This document shows positions 1 to 7,303 of a DNA stretch of 64,000 nucleotides, in pieces. The notes under the pieces were generated by a model that worked only from the letters and a program-made list of their open reading frames with translations, was not told where the DNA came from and ran no database searches. Each line of letters opens with the position of its first letter. Within the stretch, counting starts at the first letter, position 1. The position numbers were made by a program, and so were the translations under genes. The stretch is from Clostridia bacterium (GTDB lineage Bacteria; Bacillota; Clostridia; Oscillospirales; CAG-272), in contig JAFYOX010000107.1 in the NCBI GenBank assembly GCA_017547755.1, positions 22,040 to 86,039 on the forward strand, read 5' to 3'.

Positions 1-2434
1 CGATCTTGACCGTGAAATCGTGACCGATCTCTTTGACCATCTTGGAGATGTAAACGTCCCCGAGTTCGCCTTCCTTGGTGTAGACGATGTGCAGACCGTG
101 GTAATCGAATTTCCGTTCCACAGAACCTTTGACGTTGTACGCGTCGAATACAAGAACGATTTCGCGGCCCGTGTACGCCTGATAGTTCGCGAGAATGTCG
201 CACAGGTTCTGACGTGCTCCTTCAAGGTCCGTCTGTGCCAGTTCCGCCAGCTCGTCCCACGCGAAAATAACGTTGTAGCCGTCGACGATATAGAGCGATT
301 TCTTGAATTTCTGAGGGCTGACGTTGACGGTTTTCGGGACTTTCGGATCGCTGTAGACCCGGCGCTTGATCGGCCCGAATTCACGTTCCATGATCGCTTC
401 CAGTTCTTTTTCGTCGATGTTGAGATTCTGACGGATGACCTGCGGTTCTGGGATCTGCAGGTCTTCGGCCTTATCGAGCTTCAGCCCTTCCAGGTGCATG
501 TATTCCGGAACGCGGTCCCACGGAACGATGAACCCCGCACCGTGCGAGCAGAAGACCGAGTCGGGGGAATTGTCCATGTCCGCGGTCGGATCGTAGGAAA
601 ACTGTGCCAGAACTTCGTCCGTATTGTGGCAGGGGAAGTATCCTTCCACACGGCAGGAGAATTTCCCGCGTCCGTGGGTATAGGCTACCACTTCGCGGGC
701 ATAGCCGCCGATGGTCGCGACCGGTGCGCGTCCGCTGAGGACGGACGTACCGGGTTCCGCTTCATGTTCGTCAAAGGTACCGTCTCTCGCGAGAATGTCT
801 GAAATGGCACGTCCGACGCATTCGCCGGGCAGTTCCAGTCGGAAGGTATAATACGGTTCGAGAAGGACGGTCTTTTTCCTCGACAGCGCGGTCATGAGTC
901 CCTGACGGACGGCACGGTAGGTCGATTCGCGGAAGTCGCCGCCGACCGTATGCTTGAGATGTGCACGTCCGGAGACGAGGGTGATCTTCATGTCCGTGAG
1001 TGCCGAACCGGTCATGACGCCGAGATGCTGCTTTTCCTCCAGATGCGTAAGGATCAGCCGCTGCCAGTTGCGGTCAAGGAAGTTTTCGCTGCAGACGGTG
1101 TCAAAGACCAGTCCGCTGCCCGGTTCCAGCGGCTCCAGAAGCAGGTGGACTTCCGCGTAATGCCGCAGGGGTTCGAAATGTCCGATACCCTCGACAGCTT
1201 CCGTGATCGTTTCGCGGTACATGATCCGTCCGTCGTCAAAGCGTACATCCACGCCGTACCGTTCGGAGATCAGGCTGACAAGAACTTCCGTCTGCACCTG
1301 TCCCATGATCTGCGCGTGGATCTCGCCGTAGCGTTCGTTCCAGACGATGTGCAATAGCGGTTCTTCTTCCTCAAGCTGCTGCAGCTTCGGGAGAACCGTG
1401 CGTGCATCCACCTCCATGGGAAGCGCGATGCGGTAACTGAGGACGGGTTCGAGATACGGATGTCCCGCACTTTCCTCCGCACCGAGACCCTGACCGGCGT
1501 ACGTTCCGGAAAGTCCGGCGACGGCGCAGACATCTCCTGCTTCCGCGCGTTCGAGATTTTCGAATTTTGCACCGGAATACAGACGGATGCCGGTGATTTT
1601 TTCTTCTACAGGGTCCGCAGAGGCAAGCGGATGATACGTCAGAGGCTGACGGACACTCAGCGAACCGCCCGTGATCTTGAGATAGGTCAGGCGGACGCCG
1701 CTTTTGTCATGCGCAATTTTATAGACTTTTGCACCGAACTCTTCCGGCGGATAGTTTTTTTCGATCGTATACTGTTCCAGTGCGGACAGCAGAGCGTCGA
1801 CGCCGTCGAGTTTCAGACCGCTGCCGAAGAAGCAGGGGAAGAGTTTTCGTTCGGCGATCAGGCGTGCAATGTCGGCACCCCCGACGGCACCGGTCTCGAG
1901 ATAGGCTTCGAGAACGTCTTCGTCGGTCATGGCGATGCGTTCGGCGCGGCTGTCTTCGTCGGGATCGGTGAAATTGACGCATCCAGCGCCGAGATCGGCG
2001 TTCAGACCGCGCATGACCTCATCCGCCGTCCGGACGGCGAGGTCCATCTTCGTGACGAAGACGAAGGTCGGAACGTGATAGCGTTCCAGGAGATGCCAAA
2101 GAGTCTCCGTATGCGCCTGCACGCCGTCGGTGCCGCTGATCACGAGGATGGCACAGTCGAGAACGGAGAGCGTACGCTCGGTTTCCGCGGAAAAATCGAC
2201 GTGTCCGGGAGTGTCGAGCAGGGTGATGCGGAGTTTATCCGATTCGATGACCGCCTGCTTTGAGAAGATCGTGATCCCGCGTTCGCGTTCGAGCTCGTGC
2301 GTGTCGAGGTAGGTGTTTTTCCAGTCGACGCGCCCGAGTTTTTTGATTTTTCCGGTCGTATATAATAAGGCTTCGGACAGAGTCGTTTTTCCGGCGTCGA
2401 CGTGCGCCAGAATTCCGATGACTTGTTTTTTCAT
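1..2434 (-). CDS. Tet(M)/EF-G-like translational GTPase fused to a C-terminal YacP/Rae1-like NYN domain (3' end runs off the window)
   Basis: Absent from the ORF track because no stop codon lies in the window. Reverse translation from the ATG at 2434 gives MKKQVIGILAHVDAGKTTLSEALLYTTGK...LLDTPGHVDF...VTKMD (G1/G3/G4 motifs, colinear with the Tet(M) N-terminus). EF-G-like domains II-V follow. From about nt 300 downward the sequence reads KSLYIVDGYNVIFAW..ARQNL..YTGREIVLVFDAYNVKG..IVYTKEGELGD, which matches the YacP/Rae1 NYN pattern. No SD precedes the ATG; a TATAAA box lies 4 nt upstream, so the mRNA may be leaderless. Confidence 0.85.
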   Translation of the reverse strand, partial: MKKQVIGILAHVDAGKTTLSEALLYTTGKIKKLGRVDWKNTYLDTHELERERGITIFSKQAVIESDKLRITLLDTPGHVDFSAETERTLSVLDCAILVISGTDGVQAHTETLWHLLERYHVPTFVFVTKMDLAVRTADEVMRGLNADLGAGCVNFTDPDEDSRAERIAMTDEDVLEAYLETGAVGGADIARLIAERKLFPCFFGSGLKLDGVDALLSALEQYTIEKNYPPEEFGAKVYKIAHDKSGVRLTYLKITGGSLSVRQPLTYHPLASADPVEEKITGIRLYSGAKFENLERAEAGDVCAVAGLSGTYAGQGLGAEESAGHPYLEPVLSYRIALPMEVDARTVLPKLQQLEEEEPLLHIVWNERYGEIHAQIMGQVQTEVLVSLISERYGVDVRFDDGRIMYRETITEAVEGIGHFEPLRHYAEVHLLLEPLEPGSGLVFDTVCSENFLDRNWQRLILTHLEEKQHLGVMTGSALTDMKITLVSGRAHLKHTVGGDFRESTYRAVRQGLMTALSRKKTVLLEPYYTFRLELPGECVGRAISDILARDGTFDEHEAEPGTSVLSGRAPVATIGGYAREVVAYTHGRGKFSCRVEGYFPCHNTDEVLAQFSYDPTADMDNSPDSVFCSHGAGFIVPWDRVPEYMHLEGLKLDKAEDLQIPEPQVIRQNLNIDEKELEAIMEREFGPIKRRVYSDPKVPKTVNVSPQKFKKSLYIVDGYNVIFAWDELAELAQTDLEGARQNLCDILANYQAYTGREIVLVFDAYNVKGSVERKFDYHGLHIVYTKEGELGDVYISKMVKEIGHDFTVKI

Positions 2435-2456
2435 GAAATTTATAACAAAAATAATA

Positions 2457-2534
2457 GGGGAAAACTTTTTGAAAAAAGTTTTCCCCTTGAGACTTCCGGC
2501 GGAAGTCTCGTCCCTTCTTCAAAAACTTTTATAC
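2457..2534 (+). repeat. Dispersed intergenic palindromic repeat, copy A (core + inserted GC hairpin + tail)
   Basis: Core GGGGAAAACTTTTTGAAAAAAGTTTTCCCC at 2457-2486. Perfect hairpin GAGACTTCC-GGC-GGAAGTCTC at 2489-2509. Tail CCCTTCTTCAAAAACTTTTATAC ends at 2534. Confidence 0.85.
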
Positions 2535-2603
2535 TGGATGAGATAAATTACATTTATTATACCATAAAAAAGCGGGAAAAGGGAGAGTTTTTGAAATATT
2601 CTT

Positions 2604-3605
2604 TTATACGGGTTTGCAGAGGTCGAGAACGTCGTTCAGGTCGGCGGTCGCAAGACGGAGGATCGCGTCGCCTGCGCTGTGGTAGATGCGGAGTTTCCCT
2701 TCGTCATCCACAAGTGCCGCGCACGGGAAGAGAGCGTTTGTACGCATGCCTTCTTCCACTTCCCAGTATCCTTCCGGAGCCATCAGCGGCTCGTCCATTT
2801 TTCCGATGACCTTCCACGGCTTTTCGAGGTCGAGCAGGCACGCGCCGATGGTGTAGCGCTTTTTCCATGCCGCTTCCCAGCCGTTTTTGCCGCGCGACGG
2901 GTCGAAGTCGACGGCGTGATAGATCATGAGCCAGCCGCGGTCGGTCTTGATCGGCGGTGCGCCGGGACCGATCTTGTTGTTGGCGAACGGAACGTCTTCC
3001 ACACCGAGGACGAAACGGGATCTGCCCCAGTAGATGCAGTCCGGGGATTCGGACAGCCAGATGTCGAAGCGGTCGCCGCCGCGGGAGTATACGGGCATCG
3101 GACGTTCGAGACGGACGAACTGACCGTTGATTTTTTCAGGGAAGAGGACCATGTTCCGGTTGTCCGGAACAACAACGGACAGCGGCTCGTAGTTGTGGAA
3201 ATCGTCCGTGACGGCAAAACCGCCGCAGACGCCGTGGCGCGTGTCGATGGCGAAGCTGACGTAGAAGCGTCCGTCCATCGGTGTGATGCGCGGGTCGTAC
3301 AGACGGACGACTTCGCCGGGTTCGAACGTGTCGCCGAACCATTTGCCGTCGAGGACCGGTTCGGGTTCGACGTTCCAATGGATGCCGTCGTCACTGAACG
3401 CCAGACCGATGTTGGTGCCGTCGAGACGCTGTTCCTCATAGGAGCCGTAGTCGTTGCGGAACAGCATGATGTATCTGCCTTCGTGACGCACGATACCGGC
3501 GTTGAAGGTCAGTGCTGACGGATAGGGCACGTCGTGCCGGCTGAGGATGGTGTCCGGATACCGTGTGATGACCGGACTGGTCTTAAGATTACCGATAAGT
3601 TCCAT
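2604..3605 (-). CDS. GH130 family glycoside phosphorylase/hydrolase (beta-mannoside-type, DUF377 fold)
   Basis: 333-aa ORF. Five-bladed propeller GH130-type motifs (FNAGIV..EGRYIMLFR, YDPRITPMDGRFYVSF, IGPGAPPI, GWLMIYHAV). SD GGGAGA lies inside the upstream gene. Confidence 0.8.
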   Translation of the reverse strand: MELIGNLKTSPVITRYPDTILSRHDVPYPSALTFNAGIVRHEGRYIMLFRNDYGSYEEQRLDGTNIGLAFSDDGIHWNVEPEPVLDGKWFGDTFEPGEVVRLYDPRITPMDGRFYVSFAIDTRHGVCGGFAVTDDFHNYEPLSVVVPDNRNMVLFPEKINGQFVRLERPMPVYSRGGDRFDIWLSESPDCIYWGRSRFVLGVEDVPFANNKIGPGAPPIKTDRGWLMIYHAVDFDPSRGKNGWEAAWKKRYTIGACLLDLEKPWKVIGKMDEPLMAPEGYWEVEEGMRTNALFPCAALVDDEGKLRIYHSAGDAILRLATADLNDVLDLCKPV

Positions 3606-3606
3606 G

Positions 3607-4608
3607 TCAGTCTCCCATGTATTCTTTCGCCGTGTCGATCAGGGCGATGAGGTTTTCGTACGGGACGTCGGGCATGATCTCCTGCGACGGTGCAGTGATA
3701 TAACCGCCGTTTTTGCTCATCAGCTCGACGACGCGGCGGGTTTCACGGCGGACTTCGTCCGGAGTTCCGTTCGGAAGGATCCGCTGGGTGCTGATGCCTC
3801 CGAAATACGTGAGTTTATGCCCGTATTTTTCCTTGAGTTCGGCGAGATCCATGCATTCCGGCTGAACGGGATTGAGACCGTCCACGCCGATCTCGCACAG
3901 ATCGGGAAGGATCGCGTCGATCTTGCCGCAGGAATGGACGAAGACGTCCTTCTTCATGCTGTGGACAAGTTCGTATTCCATGCGTTCGCCTTCGCGGATG
4001 AGATTTGTCCACGACTGCGGCGACATCAGCAGACCGCGCTGGGTACCCCAGTCGGAGCCGAGAAGAACGCCGTCGATGTCGGGCGAAACGAGGAAGTTTT
4101 CGAGCATGACCATATTTTTGCGGATGATCATATTGAGAAGGCGCGCGGCGAATTCCGGTTCCCCGGCGATGTCGGCGAGGAAGTTTTCAAGACCGCGTGC
4201 GAAATAGGCTTTTTCGAAGTGGCTGCCCCAGATGGTGACCAGCTGATAGGCGTCGAAATTTTCGCGGAGGTATTTCCAGTGATTGAAGGAATCGCCGTAG
4301 GAACCGTAGCCGGCGGTGTACGGCAGAAGCGTCGGAGCTTCTTCGGTCGAATAATCTTCCGGGAAGGAATGCCATCCCCACCACGGCGCGTTGACGTAGA
4401 GCATGCAGTTGCCGATGGCGAGGGAGTAGGCTTCCACGAGATTCAGACGTCCGGCTTCGAATTCTTTTTTTACGTTGGCATCGCCGTAGCGTTCGATCAG
4501 CTTCGGACCGTAGAGGTCGTTGCTTTCGGGCGCGAGGATGATGGTGTAGGGCACTCTGCCGGTATTTTCGTGCGCGAGCGCCTGTTTGAGAATTTCACGT
4601 CTTGTCAT
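3607..4608 (-). CDS. Uroporphyrinogen decarboxylase (URO-D)-like family protein, function unknown in this context
   Basis: 333-aa ORF. The C-terminal half (VFVHSCGKI..LPDLCEIGVDGLNPVQPECMDL..GGIST) resembles the URO-D/MtaA TIM-barrel family. There is a 1-nt gap to the GH130 gene. Confidence 0.65.
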   Translation of the reverse strand: MTRREILKQALAHENTGRVPYTIILAPESNDLYGPKLIERYGDANVKKEFEAGRLNLVEAYSLAIGNCMLYVNAPWWGWHSFPEDYSTEEAPTLLPYTAGYGSYGDSFNHWKYLRENFDAYQLVTIWGSHFEKAYFARGLENFLADIAGEPEFAARLLNMIIRKNMVMLENFLVSPDIDGVLLGSDWGTQRGLLMSPQSWTNLIREGERMEYELVHSMKKDVFVHSCGKIDAILPDLCEIGVDGLNPVQPECMDLAELKEKYGHKLTYFGGISTQRILPNGTPDEVRRETRRVVELMSKNGGYITAPSQEIMPDVPYENLIALIDTAKEYMGD

Positions 4609-4617
4609 GGGGACTCC

Positions 4618-6180
4618 TTATCTTTTTGCGGATTCCAGACCTTCTTTGTAATTTTCGATGTACTTGGCAAATCCGGCCTTTCCGGATTCGGTCGGCGCAA
4701 GGGTCTTCACTTCCATGCCGCCGAAGACGTTTTCATCGAGGAAGTCGGGCAGGGACTTGCCGTTTTTCTTCATCATGTATGCCGCGAGGATCGCCATACC
4801 CCACGCACCGCCTTCTCCGGCGGTCTTCATGACGGAGATCGGCGTGTCGAACGCGTCGGCAAGGATCTGCTGTGCCACGCCTTCGCACTTGAAGAGGCCG
4901 CCGTGACCGGTGAACTTGTCCGCCGTGACCTTTTCGTTTTCGAAGAGGAGATCGTTGCCGATCTTCAGTGCCGCAACGGCGGTGCAGATCTGTGCGCGGA
5001 AGAAGTTTGCGAGGTTCATATTGCCGCCGAGCAGGCGGAAGTAGCTCGGAACGCCGACGTTCACACCGATGACGGGTTCGGCAGAAAGGAAGTTGTAGGA
5101 AACTACGCCGCCGCAGTCCGCGTCACCGTTGAGCGCATTGCTGTAAAGTGCCGCGTAAACGTCGGATTTGTCCATCGGATGTCCGCTGACTGCCGCGAAT
5201 TCGCCGAAGATCTTCGCCCATGCGTCGATTTCAGCGCAGCAGTTGTTGCAGTGTACCATCGCAACGGGAGCGCCGTCGGGGGTGGTGACCATGTCGATCT
5301 CGGGATAATAGGTTGAGAGGGACTTGTCGAGAACGAGCATGGAGAAGATCGACGTACCTGCGGAGACGTTGCCGGTACGCGGACGGACGCCGTTGGTCGC
5401 AACCATGCCAGTGCCTGCGTCGCCTTCGGGAGGACAGAGCGGAATTCCGGCTTTGAGCGTGCCGGTGGGGTCAAGCAGCTTTGCACCCGCTTCGGTGAGG
5501 ACTGCGCCGGTGTCGCCGGCGTTCTTGACTGCCGGAAGAACGGTGAGGATATCCTGTGCGAAGCCGTGTTCCTTCAGCTTTGCGGCGGTTTTTTCGATCA
5601 TTGCCGCGTCGTAATCGCCGGTGACGGAGTCGATCGGGAAAATACCGGACGCTTCGCCGACACCGACTTCACGGTGTCCGGTGAGGAGGTAGTGGATGTA
5701 GCCCGCGAGCGTGGTGATGTGGTCGATGTCGCCGATGTGATCTTCGCCGGAGAGGATCGCCTGATAAAGATGGGAAATACTCCAGCGCTGGGGAATGTTG
5801 AAGTTCAGAAGTGCGGAGAGTTCGTCCGCCGCTTCGCCGGTGGTGGTATTGCGCCATGTACGGAAGGGAACGAGCAGATTGTCGTTTTTATCGAACGCGA
5901 GGTAGCCGTGCATCATGCCGGAGATGCCGATTGCCGCCACGGTATCGAGAGGTTTTTCGTACTTTTCCAGAACATCCGCTGCGAGAGATGCAAAGCATCC
6001 CTGCATACCGGCGATAAAATCGTCGGCGGAATAGGTCCAGTAGCCGTTTTCGAAGCGGTTTTCCCAGTCGTACGCGCCGGACGCGACCGGGTTGAAATTT
6101 TCGTCGATGAGAACGCCCTTGATACGGGTCGAGCCGAACTCAATGCCGAGGAAGGTGTTCGCAAGGTTGAGGTCTGTCAT
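4618..6180 (-). CDS. FGGY-family carbohydrate kinase (xylulokinase-like)
   Basis: 520-aa ORF. N-terminal FLGIEFGSTRIKGVL ATPase motif and a GGLF...AWGMAILAAY C-terminal FGGY signature. Confidence 0.8.
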   Translation of the reverse strand: MTDLNLANTFLGIEFGSTRIKGVLIDENFNPVASGAYDWENRFENGYWTYSADDFIAGMQGCFASLAADVLEKYEKPLDTVAAIGISGMMHGYLAFDKNDNLLVPFRTWRNTTTGEAADELSALLNFNIPQRWSISHLYQAILSGEDHIGDIDHITTLAGYIHYLLTGHREVGVGEASGIFPIDSVTGDYDAAMIEKTAAKLKEHGFAQDILTVLPAVKNAGDTGAVLTEAGAKLLDPTGTLKAGIPLCPPEGDAGTGMVATNGVRPRTGNVSAGTSIFSMLVLDKSLSTYYPEIDMVTTPDGAPVAMVHCNNCCAEIDAWAKIFGEFAAVSGHPMDKSDVYAALYSNALNGDADCGGVVSYNFLSAEPVIGVNVGVPSYFRLLGGNMNLANFFRAQICTAVAALKIGNDLLFENEKVTADKFTGHGGLFKCEGVAQQILADAFDTPISVMKTAGEGGAWGMAILAAYMMKKNGKSLPDFLDENVFGGMEVKTLAPTESGKAGFAKYIENYKEGLESAKR

Positions 6181-6275
6181 TGGAATTTCTCCTTTGCGTT
6201 ATGTAATTGTTTTCATTATATCATATCAATTGGAAAAAGAAAAGACGCCGGAGAAAATTAATTCGCCGTTTCCAC

Positions 6276-6304
6276 TTTACAAACTGCCCGAAATCATGTA
6301 TACT
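6276..6304 (+). promoter_or_regulatory. Candidate sigma-70 promoter for the 6347 operon
   Basis: TTTACA, 17-nt spacer, TATACT. Confidence 0.45.
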
Positions 6305-6346
6305 GAAGACAAAATACTGTCAGAAAACAACAAAAAGGAGAGCATT

Positions 6347-7303
6347 ATGAAAAACATTCGTTTCGGCATCATCGGCGCGGGCAATATCGCAAACAAGTTC
6401 TGTGATGCGGCGAAGCTTGCAGACGGCGCGGAAGTCTGCGCGGTGGCGAGCAAATCCATGGAACGTGCACAGGCATTCGCGGAAAGAAACGGCATTGCAA
6501 AGGCGTACGATTCCTACGAAGAAATGCTGAAGACGGAGGACATCGACGCGGTCTATATCGCGACGACGCACAATTTCCACATGGAAAACATCCGTCTCTG
6601 CTTCGAATACGGCAAGCACGTCCTCTGCGAAAAGGCAATGGTGCTGACCGCGGACGACGCAAGGGAAATTTTCCGTCTGGCAAAGGAAAAGAATCTGTTC
6701 TGCATGGAAGCGATGTGGTCGAATTTCCTTCCGCAGACGCAGAAGGCAAAGGAATGGATCACCTCCGGCGCGATCGGGGAAATTCAATCGGTCAGCGCGG
6801 TCATCGGCTTCAACGGCGGCGAAAATCCCGAAAGCCGTCTGTATAATCCCGCACTCGCGGGCGGCGCGATGTACGATATCGGCGTATATCCCGTAGAGAT
6901 CGTTTCCTATCTCGTCGGAGAACCGATCGAAGACTGCATCGGCGTATGGCGTCCGCATGCTGTCACGGGTGTGGACGAACGTGTTTCCTTCATCGTCCGC
7001 TACGCATCCTGCGACGCGGCGATCCAGACGGTGCTGACCTCCAATGCGCGTGAATATACGATCATCAACGGAAGCAAGGGATGCATCGAACTTCCGTGGA
7101 GCAGCAGCGGCTACGTTGCCAAGCGGTATGACGGCCGCCGTCAGCTTGCGGAAACCTATGAAGACCGCTTTGAAAACGGCTTTGTTTTTGAAATCGAAGA
7201 AGTCGTCCGCTGCATCAACGAAGGAAAGATCACTTCCGACATCATGCCGCCGGAAGCAACGATCCAGTGCGCGGAACTCTTCGACAAACTTCTGAGAGGC
7301 TGA
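6347..7303 (+). CDS. Gfo/Idh/MocA family NAD(P)-dependent oxidoreductase
   Basis: MKNIRFGIIGAGNIANKF Rossmann start preceded by AAAGGAG. The track ORF (6092) is an upstream extension that overlaps the kinase gene. EKAM motif present. Confidence 0.85.
   Translation: MKNIRFGIIGAGNIANKFCDAAKLADGAEVCAVASKSMERAQAFAERNGIAKAYDSYEEMLKTEDIDAVYIATTHNFHMENIRLCFEYGKHVLCEKAMVLTADDAREIFRLAKEKNLFCMEAMWSNFLPQTQKAKEWITSGAIGEIQSVSAVIGFNGGENPESRLYNPALAGGAMYDIGVYPVEIVSYLVGEPIEDCIGVWRPHAVTGVDERVSFIVRYASCDAAIQTVLTSNAREYTIINGSKGCIELPWSSSGYVAKRYDGRRQLAETYEDRFENGFVFEIEEVVRCINEGKITSDIMPPEATIQCAELFDKLLRG

Follow-up and report, generated by a model that had tools for sequence, protein, structure and literature searches.

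The ribonuclease Rae1 (YacP) cleaves the mRNA of ribosomes that have stalled or collided and thereby supplies trans-translation (PMC12407103; PMC13622287). How Rae1 recognizes the ribosome is a stated open question: the interaction is transient and there is no ribosome-bound structure (PMC13622287). Proteins that join a Tet-like GTPase to a NYN_YacP domain have already been reported in Clostridia, by Atkinson 2015 (BMC Genomics, PMC4342817) and by Matelska et al. 2017 (Nucleic Acids Research, PMC5499597). Both reports treated the fusion in one or two sentences, speaking of 'ten species of clostridiales', and left its function open; Atkinson 2015 placed these proteins in the Tet subfamily (PMC4342817). 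We analyzed a copy of this fusion gene at one edge of a 64,000-nucleotide stretch of DNA from a Clostridia bacterium (assembly GCA_017547755.1, contig JAFYOX010000107.1, positions 22,040 to 86,039), referred to here as the window, together with relatives of the gene. The open reading frame (ORF) encodes a complete five-domain EF-G/Tet-like translational GTPase (residues 1-604) and a Rae1-type NYN domain in one gene. We see an even chance that the GTPase delivers the Rae1 domain to stalled or collided ribosomes for cleavage of their mRNA.

The architecture itself is already known and is not a discovery. The novelty implied by the initial annotation of this DNA was lost with the publications of 2015 and 2017 and survived only for experimental characterization: no experimental work on the fusion was found in a full-text literature search, with Condon 2018 (Rae1 distribution) and Leroy 2017 (Rae1 discovery) outside its reach. 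The fusion was not mentioned in the most recent Rae1 papers. The census of Rae1 in recent Rae1 work used hmmsearch without a size filter, and fusions were therefore probably counted as Rae1.

The fusion gene lies on the minus strand (1..2434), as do all features of the gene described below. Its frame starts with an ATG at 2434-2432 and stays open for 811 codons down to the window edge, so that the window holds the first 811 of ~866 codons. The ORF listing leaves out frames that run off the end of a sequence, and the 2434..1 ORF was unlisted for that reason. Translation reproduced every peptide quoted in the initial annotation, and its reading of a GTPase and a NYN domain in a single frame was borne out by the 811 open codons. 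Because the window truncates the ORF, its end is not directly visible, and a pseudogene, or an error of sequencing or assembly that fused two adjoining genes, had to be considered. Two relatives, P0001 and P0002, are 98% identical to the window protein and 866 aa long. The reverse complement of window positions 1-4700 was colinear with contig L004, including the two genes upstream, and 93% identical to it in DNA. The L004 copy ran for 866 codons to its stop, i.e. 55 codons and a stop past the position of the window edge. At more than 65 species-level genome loci, the G1 motif and the NYN domain lay in one unbroken ORF of 834-952 aa. The same unbroken ORF thus occurs in more than 65 independent assemblies, as well as in thousands of metagenome proteins, and both halves and the linker keep functional residues under strong purifying selection. 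A stop or frameshift past the edge, which would have separated two genes, was looked for and not found in the L004 ORF or at these loci. On the strength of the 866-aa relatives, the L004 alignment and the unbroken loci we rejected a frameshift, stop or two-gene artefact, the probability of which is negligible.

Pfam matches, called at curated (gathering) thresholds, agreed with the earlier assignment of EF-G-like GTPase domains and a YacP/Rae1 NYN domain. The G domain with its G' insertion (residues 5-223; 1766..2422) matched GTP_EFTU (E = 2e-51). Domain II (residues 234-311; 1502..1735) scored 20 bits against EF-G_D2, below the cut-off, and was modeled by AlphaFold2 (AF2) as a beta-barrel with a predicted local distance difference test score (pLDDT) of ~90. 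Domain III (residues 329-399; 1238..1450) matched EFG_III at 29 bits against a cut-off of 27. Domain IV (residues 402-516; 887..1231) and domain V (residues 523-604; 623..868) matched EFG_IV (E = 9.5e-15) and EFG_C (E = 1.2e-15). The N-terminal 100 residues of the NYN domain (712-811; 2..301) were assigned by NYN_YacP and by alignment to structure 5MQ8.

The nuclease half closely resembled Rae1. NYN_YacP (PF05991) was found at residues 716-805 (E = 9e-30, 104.2 bits against a cut-off of 24.6), where a NYN domain had been anticipated from about residue 710. The match covered profile positions 2-92 of 166, stopping at position 92 because the window ends. The NYN segment was 40% identical to B. 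subtilis Rae1 over the 92 residues inside the window, and the NYN domain of P0001 was colinear with the Rae1/YacP crystal structure 5MQ8 over residues 3-146 (E = 2e-25). Residues D718, D764, D793 and D815 correspond to Rae1 D7, D53, D81 and D104 and were invariant in 27 members down to 39% identity. The first three lie inside the window; D815 and the C-terminal helix are beyond the edge, D815 being read in the 98%-identical P0001. A catalytic-dead Rae1 has been published, the D7N/D81N mutant (PMC10351889). The NYN domain looks active, and we predict that it is a catalytically intact Rae1-type endoribonuclease.

The GTPase half also appeared intact. Among 199 full-length family members, the G1 motif AHVDAGKTT and the G3 motif DTPGH with its catalytic H78 were 97-100% conserved. 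The G4 motif (TKMD in the window) was [T 62% / N 35%]KxD, with K and D at 100%. Because G1, G3 and G4 are intact and conserved, we read this half as an active-looking and probably catalytically competent translational GTPase.

This GTPase reached neither the Tet nor the EF-G score cut-offs. The best-scoring curated hidden Markov model (HMM) was tet_protect (NF012153), with 404.4 bits against a cut-off of 775, and scores were also under the cut-offs of the Tet-class models NF033148, NF012154, NF012155 and NF000120. EF-G models gave 262.5 bits against 659 (TIGR00484) and 303.8 bits against 583 (NF009381). In a sequence search of the PDB, Tet(M) was the top match at 230.6 bits, and EF-G was nearly tied at 222 bits. 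When domain IV alone was compared with the PDB, only EF-G chains and no Tet proteins were returned at E <= 1e-3. The best 50 Foldseek matches of the whole AF2 model, a comparison that is uninformative on the C-terminal extension and tether, were all EF-G/EF-2. Domain IV is, as judged from these matches, nearer to EF-G than to Tet.

Few segments outside the G domain were as well conserved as the tip loops of domain IV. Tip loop I (residues 416-426, G-x-G-H-F-E-P-L-R-H-Y; 1157..1189) was 4 residues shorter than the aligned EF-G segment with GGRGQYG, in place of which GHFEPLRHY was found. G416, G418, H419, E421, P422 and L423 were invariant, and R424, H425 and Y426 were conserved at >=90%, across 27 members down to 39% identity. 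The second tip loop (residues 489-502, G-R-A-H-L-K-H-T-V-G-G-D-F-R; 929..970) lies at the site of Tet(M) loop III, whose individual residues are important for contacting and dislodging tetracycline. Tet(M) Y506-Y507-S508-P509-V510 aligned to A491-H492-L493-K494-H495, so that YYSPV is replaced. The replacement AHxKH was family-specific: A491, H492, K494 and H495 were conserved at 89-100% (H492 95%, K494 96%, H495 100%), and the fixed positions of the family motif G-R-A-H-x-K-H-T-x-G-G-D-F-R at 82-100%. H492, at 95%, aligns with the tip histidine H573 of Thermus thermophilus EF-G. The tip thus appears strongly constrained and unlike both Tet and EF-G, and its conservation suggests selection on a predicted contact with the decoding center. 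A general role of the domain IV loops in Tet proteins has been described (PMC4342817).

NCBI's annotation pipeline (PGAP) names family members 'TetM/TetW/TetO/TetS family tetracycline resistance ribosomal protection protein', "NYN domain-containing protein" or "translation factor GTPase family protein". The first name implies a genuine tetracycline ribosomal protection protein with an accessory RNase. Consistent with it, tet_protect exceeded the best EF-G model (404 against 304 bits), Tet(M) led the PDB sequence search, and Atkinson 2015 assigned the Tet subfamily. However, the tet_protect score is about half of its cut-off and far under every Tet-class cut-off, Tet(M) and EF-G differ little in the PDB search (231 and 222 bits), and domain IV alone and the Foldseek matches point to EF-G. 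In addition, YYSPV gives way to a conserved AHxKH, and in hundreds of species the gene is chromosomal, vertically inherited and free of any mobile-element context. A resistance protein is very improbable, in line with the initial annotation, which had set tetracycline resistance aside: 404 against 775 bits, the replaced YYSPV and a chromosomal position among housekeeping genes all speak for its view. We therefore argue that the Tet label is wrong for the family, since the score is under the cut-off, loop III is replaced and inheritance is chromosomal. The label probably inflates tetracycline-resistance counts in resistome surveys of gut metagenomes, as a systematic over-call.

Between domain V and the NYN domain lies an interval (residues 605-716, including an ordered extension) of 106-238 residues across the family, with a median of 116. 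No Pfam family matched the 116 residues that separate domain V from NYN. The ordered C-terminal extension (residues 602-650; 485..631) was modeled with pLDDT ~80-90 as a helix, beta-hairpin and helix (H605-612, E626-630, E633-637, H639-645). It bears a highly conserved block, YDPxxDxxNxPDSVFCxHGAGFxVPW..YMHL; a second such block in the extension/tether region is ELExIMEREFGPIxRR. Around the extension beta-hairpin, C602, H603, C629, H631 and H647 were conserved at 80% to >95%. This Cys/His set of residues 602-650 looks like a candidate metal-binding site, possibly for zinc.

The extension is followed by a flexible tether (residues 651-711; 302..484), with pLDDT <50 at 651-678 and 690-709. Within it, a conserved helix motif, ELEAIMEREFGPIKRR, spans residues 677-692 (359-406), with an AF2 helix at 675-686. 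The AF2 model as a whole had a mean pLDDT of 85 and showed a disordered tether of ~60 residues (651-709) between two well-folded parts, the second being a NYN domain with a long C-terminal helix (residues 712-866).

The tether and the domain IV tip bear on a reading in which the nuclease is directed at rRNA: the GTPase would dock on immature, damaged or surplus ribosomes, and NYN would cut rRNA in maturation proofreading or decommissioning. The earliest prediction for NYN_YacP, drawn from its operon with mrnC and rlmB, was a role in rRNA/tRNA maturation (PMC5499597). The factor-binding site is ringed by rRNA, and the conserved basic tip could recognize rRNA and not mRNA. However, all experimentally defined Rae1 substrates are mRNAs cleaved in a translation-dependent manner, a disordered tether speaks against a precisely positioned rRNA cut, and no ribosome-biogenesis genes are conserved nearby. 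We regard an rRNA target as quite unlikely.

The family proved to be large. A word-indexed search returned >8000 relatives, the best 120 of which were all 848-894 aa and all carried PF05991. A HMMER search with the linker and NYN part only found at least 221 cluster representatives (50% identity) at E <= 1e-30; nearly all were 830-1070 aa and matched from about residue 590, or were contig-end fragments of such proteins. Matches of 200-290 aa that suggested a stand-alone 'linker helix + NYN' family were rejected: they start at internal Met residues within conserved blocks and are therefore truncated calls at contig ends. A scan of one genome per species found the fusion in at least 582 genomes. 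Carriers include members of Oscillospiraceae, Ruminococcaceae, Acutalibacteraceae and Lachnospiraceae (Blautia, Coprococcus, Faecalimonas); Agathobacter rectalis and Monoglobus pectinilyticus are also carriers, and among the matches listed in the species scan were Intestinimonas butyriciproducens, Agathobaculum, Oscillibacter and Dysosmobacter. The closest named genome among the matches listed was a metagenome-assembled Clostridia genome from goat caecum (L006), with 90% identity over the C-terminal part. This is a large chromosomal family of gut Clostridia (Oscillospirales, Lachnospirales, Monoglobales), and its distribution looks vertical. Its neighbors were ordinary metabolic or housekeeping genes that varied by lineage, with no operon conserved family-wide. 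In the window's lineage, as seen at the loci of relatives, the genes downstream of the fusion encode a sortase or are of unknown function.

Plasmid or mobile origin was considered and rejected, as the two full-length 'plasmid' matches were chromosome-like replicons of 252 and 518 kb with secA and prfB. The module is thus essentially missing from true plasmids. Several gut-Clostridia records are filed in PLSDB as 'plasmids', among them Agathobacter rectalis NZ_CP143948.1 (L086), Monoglobus pectinilyticus NZ_OY725736.1 (L087) and Subdoligranulum OY725877.1 (L091). These replicons of 250-520 kb bear core genes such as secA, prfB, methionyl aminopeptidase and mrnC, and appear to be chromosome fragments labeled as plasmids.

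Nuclease-NTPase fusions are common in defence systems. The protein might accordingly be a toxin or anti-phage abortive-infection effector, in which infection, sensed by the GTPase, would set free a ribosome-targeted RNase. The authors of the Rae1 work speculate on action against phage mRNAs (PMC13622287), and the module is carried by two human-faecal contigs filed as 'UNVERIFIED: Bacteriophage sp.'. These two contigs, L088 (MT835563.1) and MT835514.1, encode a full linker and NYN at 39% identity and are unannotated; they are probably bacterial contigs misfiled as phage, and they were the sole basis for considering a phage origin. Against a defence effector, no PADLOC-DB protein model matched at E <= 0.01, and we rejected a defence system on that ground. 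Nor was there a defence-island or mobile context, and one copy of the gene lay among housekeeping genes. The phage records are flagged and unannotated, and the distribution looks vertical. A defence role is extremely improbable.

A link to ribosome-associated quality control (RQC) was seen in part of the family. A ylmH-family gene of ~247 aa lay directly downstream of the fusion on the same strand at 13 of 82 loci (L015, L019, L025, L026, L034, L035, L036, L041, L045, L049, L050, L054 and L060). Its product matched PF17774 (S4/RNA-binding) at 36.6 bits against a cut-off of 23. The fusion and ylmH-like ORFs overlapped at 8 loci, by 11-17 nt, so that translation of the fusion may be coupled to that of an RQC factor. 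The linked fusion proteins were mutually 49-79% identical, and the linkage has therefore outlasted considerable divergence; it may be confined to one Oscillospiraceae sub-clade. YlmH is a partner of RqcH in RQC (PMC11317155). As far as could be found, there is no earlier report of a link between the fusion and ylmH.

The ylmH linkage is also a point for a coupled cut-and-rescue factor, in which NYN would be the primary sensor and cutter and the EF-G-like module would do mechanical work such as splitting, back- or forward-translocation or A-site clearing. The operon points to the 50S-peptidyl-tRNA complex, a product of subunit splitting (PMC11317155), and stand-alone Rae1 finds ribosomes without needing a GTPase (PMC13622287). 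Full conservation of the GTPase catalytic residues suggests GTP turnover and work beyond binding, and domain IV is EF-G-like, including the tip histidine. However, the GGRGQYG segment of EF-G loop I is replaced, the protein scores far under EF-G cut-offs, and no partner equivalent to ribosome recycling factor was encoded nearby at the loci examined. We consider this alternative unlikely.

A GTPase-delivered Rae1 would work as follows. The GTPase module in its GTP form would bind the factor-binding site of a ribosome halted in elongation, and the family-specific His/Arg/Lys-rich tip of domain IV would probe the decoding center. The Rae1 domain would be kept at very high local concentration on the bound ribosome, and the tether would let the nuclease reach mRNA at its own docking site. 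Stand-alone Rae1 docks at the trailing edge of a stalled ribosome or at the interface between collided ribosomes. Cutting would leave truncated messages for clearance by transfer-messenger RNA (tmRNA) or RQC, and GTP hydrolysis would free or reset the factor. The intact fusion ORF, the conserved GTPase and NYN residues, the conserved tip loops, the tether, the chromosomal context and the ylmH link support this proposal.

Several points weigh against delivery by the GTPase. The current Rae1 cleavage site is on the 30S face opposite the factor-binding site; the tether would need to span ~100 Å, which a disordered chain of 60 residues could do. The inter-domain geometry of the AF2 model is uninformative, most members of its alignment having >40% identity. 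The ylmH linkage was absent from the window's own lineage and was present in only ~16% of the loci examined, perhaps one sub-clade. We infer the target RNA (mRNA or rRNA), the ribosome state recognized and the role of GTP hydrolysis alike.

Ribosome rescue or mRNA surveillance, which the initial annotation had put forward, is nonetheless the best-supported reading; the defence role offered with it found no support, as no PADLOC model matched. Its further idea, that Rae1 and Tet(M) share docking at the A site, is outdated: it depends on a docking model that was withdrawn, the Rae1 A-site model having since been replaced by its own authors (PMC12407103). In addition, the AF2 model puts NYN on the disordered tether and not in a rigid position.

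More doubtfully, the fusion may be the only Rae1 in Oscillospirales and Lachnospirales cells, serving a GTP-gated pathway akin to no-go decay; we hold this only tentatively. The EF-G-type GTPase would read the stalled ribosome with its unique domain IV tip and would then license cutting of the mRNA by the tethered nuclease, the products passing to tmRNA and to RqcH/YlmH. Neither the 64-kb window nor 0.94 Mb of flanking DNA contained a second NYN gene, a sample too small for a whole-genome statement. No NYN gene was found within 5 kb of mrnC in the chromosome-like 'plasmid' records of two Oscillospiraceae, Pusillibacter and Subdoligranulum, neither of which is known to carry the fusion. In the Subdoligranulum record, mrnC was followed by other genes. 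In Bacilli, mrnC is followed by rlmB-rae1, whereas in Pusillibacter faecalis (NZ_AP023421.1; L090, locus 4971-7120) a NFACT/RqcH-type gene stands there instead, its ORF abutting mrnC. This pair is another case of an RNA-processing gene beside an RQC gene.

If the GTP-gated pathway is correct, the fusion would be the first bacterial translational GTPase to directly deliver an mRNA-surveillance nuclease. A GTPase-locked form should then bind stably and provide a tool to trap the complex of Rae1 with the ribosome, elusive so far, for structural work. Natural fusions of Rae1 to an EF-G-type GTPase occur in hundreds of abundant gut Clostridia and would offer a stable complex that could be locked (GDPNP or H78A) for cryo-electron microscopy. 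The fusion also offers a direct test of whether GTPase sensing of the ribosome state can gate mRNA cleavage. Work on Rae1 and ribosome collisions in 2025-2026 makes the fusion newly relevant. The value of the window copy is limited, the architecture being already known and the copy truncated.

The region upstream of the gene was read for signals of transcription and translation. An extended -10-like box, TGT-TATAAA (2439..2447; TATAAA 2444-2439, TG 2447-2446), ended 4 nt before the ATG, and no Shine-Dalgarno (SD) sequence was present between the TATAAA box and the ATG. The promoter scan skipped this box because position 6 of the hexamer is A. A terminator-like hairpin of 14 bp with a T-tract (2446..2487), conserved in L004 and L005, ended 12 nt before the ATG; a promoter 3' of the hairpin would therefore have to be leaderless. 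Another, GC-rich hairpin, GAGACTTCCGCCGGAAGTCTC (2489..2509), was intergenic and occurred once in the window. A consensus extended -10 box, TGGTATAAT (2556..2564), lay ~122 nt upstream of the ATG and is an alternative promoter. The leader 2556..2425 folded at -40.1 kcal/mol (z = -5.9) into two hairpins; the second, the terminator-like one, could end transcription of the upstream GH130 operon or serve the GTPase gene as an attenuator. The layout of window positions 2425-2564, with the TGGTATAAT box followed by two hairpins, was also found in L004 and L005, and in L006 the TGGTATAAT box was 30 nt upstream of the ATG. An Rfam search of the whole window gave no family for this structured region.

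Of 73 related loci, 9 lacked an SD and had a canonical promoter, often of the form TTGATT, 17 nt, TGnTAnAAT, whose end was 5-8 nt from the ATG. These leaderless-type loci (L009, L016, L022, L035, L043, L048, L049, L051 and L054) were recognized within 40 nt upstream of the fusion start. A leaderless mRNA had also been suggested for the window gene. The facts behind the suggestion, no SD and a TATAAA box 4 nt upstream, were correct, and leaderless transcription of this gene is plausible but unproven. The terminator-like hairpin and the nine leaderless-type loci speak for it. The short 4-nt spacing, the A at hexamer position 6, the SD at 53 of the 73 loci and the upstream TGGTATAAT box with its structured leader count against it.

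Elsewhere the window was unremarkable chromosomal DNA of an anaerobe that degrades carbohydrates, carrying genes for GH130, GH2, YfhO and an FGGY kinase as well as a URO-D-like gene. No tRNA, no Rfam match and no mobile-element signal was found in the whole window.

Compared with the family of Atkinson and Matelska, the proteins described here are the same family, with an N-terminal TetM-like GTPase and a C-terminal YacP-like NYN in Clostridia. We differ from those reports in extending it to at least 582 species and in finding that its scores fall short of Tet criteria, that catalytic residues are kept, that the tether is disordered and that a sub-clade has a ylmH operon. The likeness to B. 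subtilis Rae1 (5MQ8/5MQ9) includes ~40% identity, colinearity over the 145-residue structure, the long C-terminal helix and the four acidic residues. However, Rae1 stands alone, with ~170 aa and a gene that follows mrnC-rlmB, whereas the domain studied here makes up the C-terminal quarter of an 866-aa GTPase whose gene has unrelated neighbors.

The GTPase half shares with Tet(M)/Tet(O) the five-domain plan with G' insertion, the best curated HMM and the top PDB sequence match. Unlike them, the fusion is longer by ~260 residues at the C-terminus, lacks the tetracycline-dislodging motif of loop III, and is chromosomal and vertically inherited, whereas Tet(M)/Tet(O) are on conjugative transposons. 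With EF-G and EF-G2 paralogues it shares the overall fold and a similar domain IV sequence, including the tip histidine (H573 in T. thermophilus), but it scores under all EF-G cut-offs, has loop I replaced and adds the tether and nuclease.

The proposed logic, in which a nuclease cuts the mRNA of a stalled or collided ribosome and leads to rescue, resembles that of SmrB in E. coli and Cue2/NONU-1 in eukaryotes (PMC13622287). Their SMR fold is unrelated to the NYN fold. To our knowledge none of these factors, nor those of the Dom34-Hbs1 system, is covalently fused to an EF-G-type GTPase. Dom34-Hbs1 resembles the proposed factor in that surveillance is GTPase-delivered, with a translational GTPase reading the state of the ribosome.

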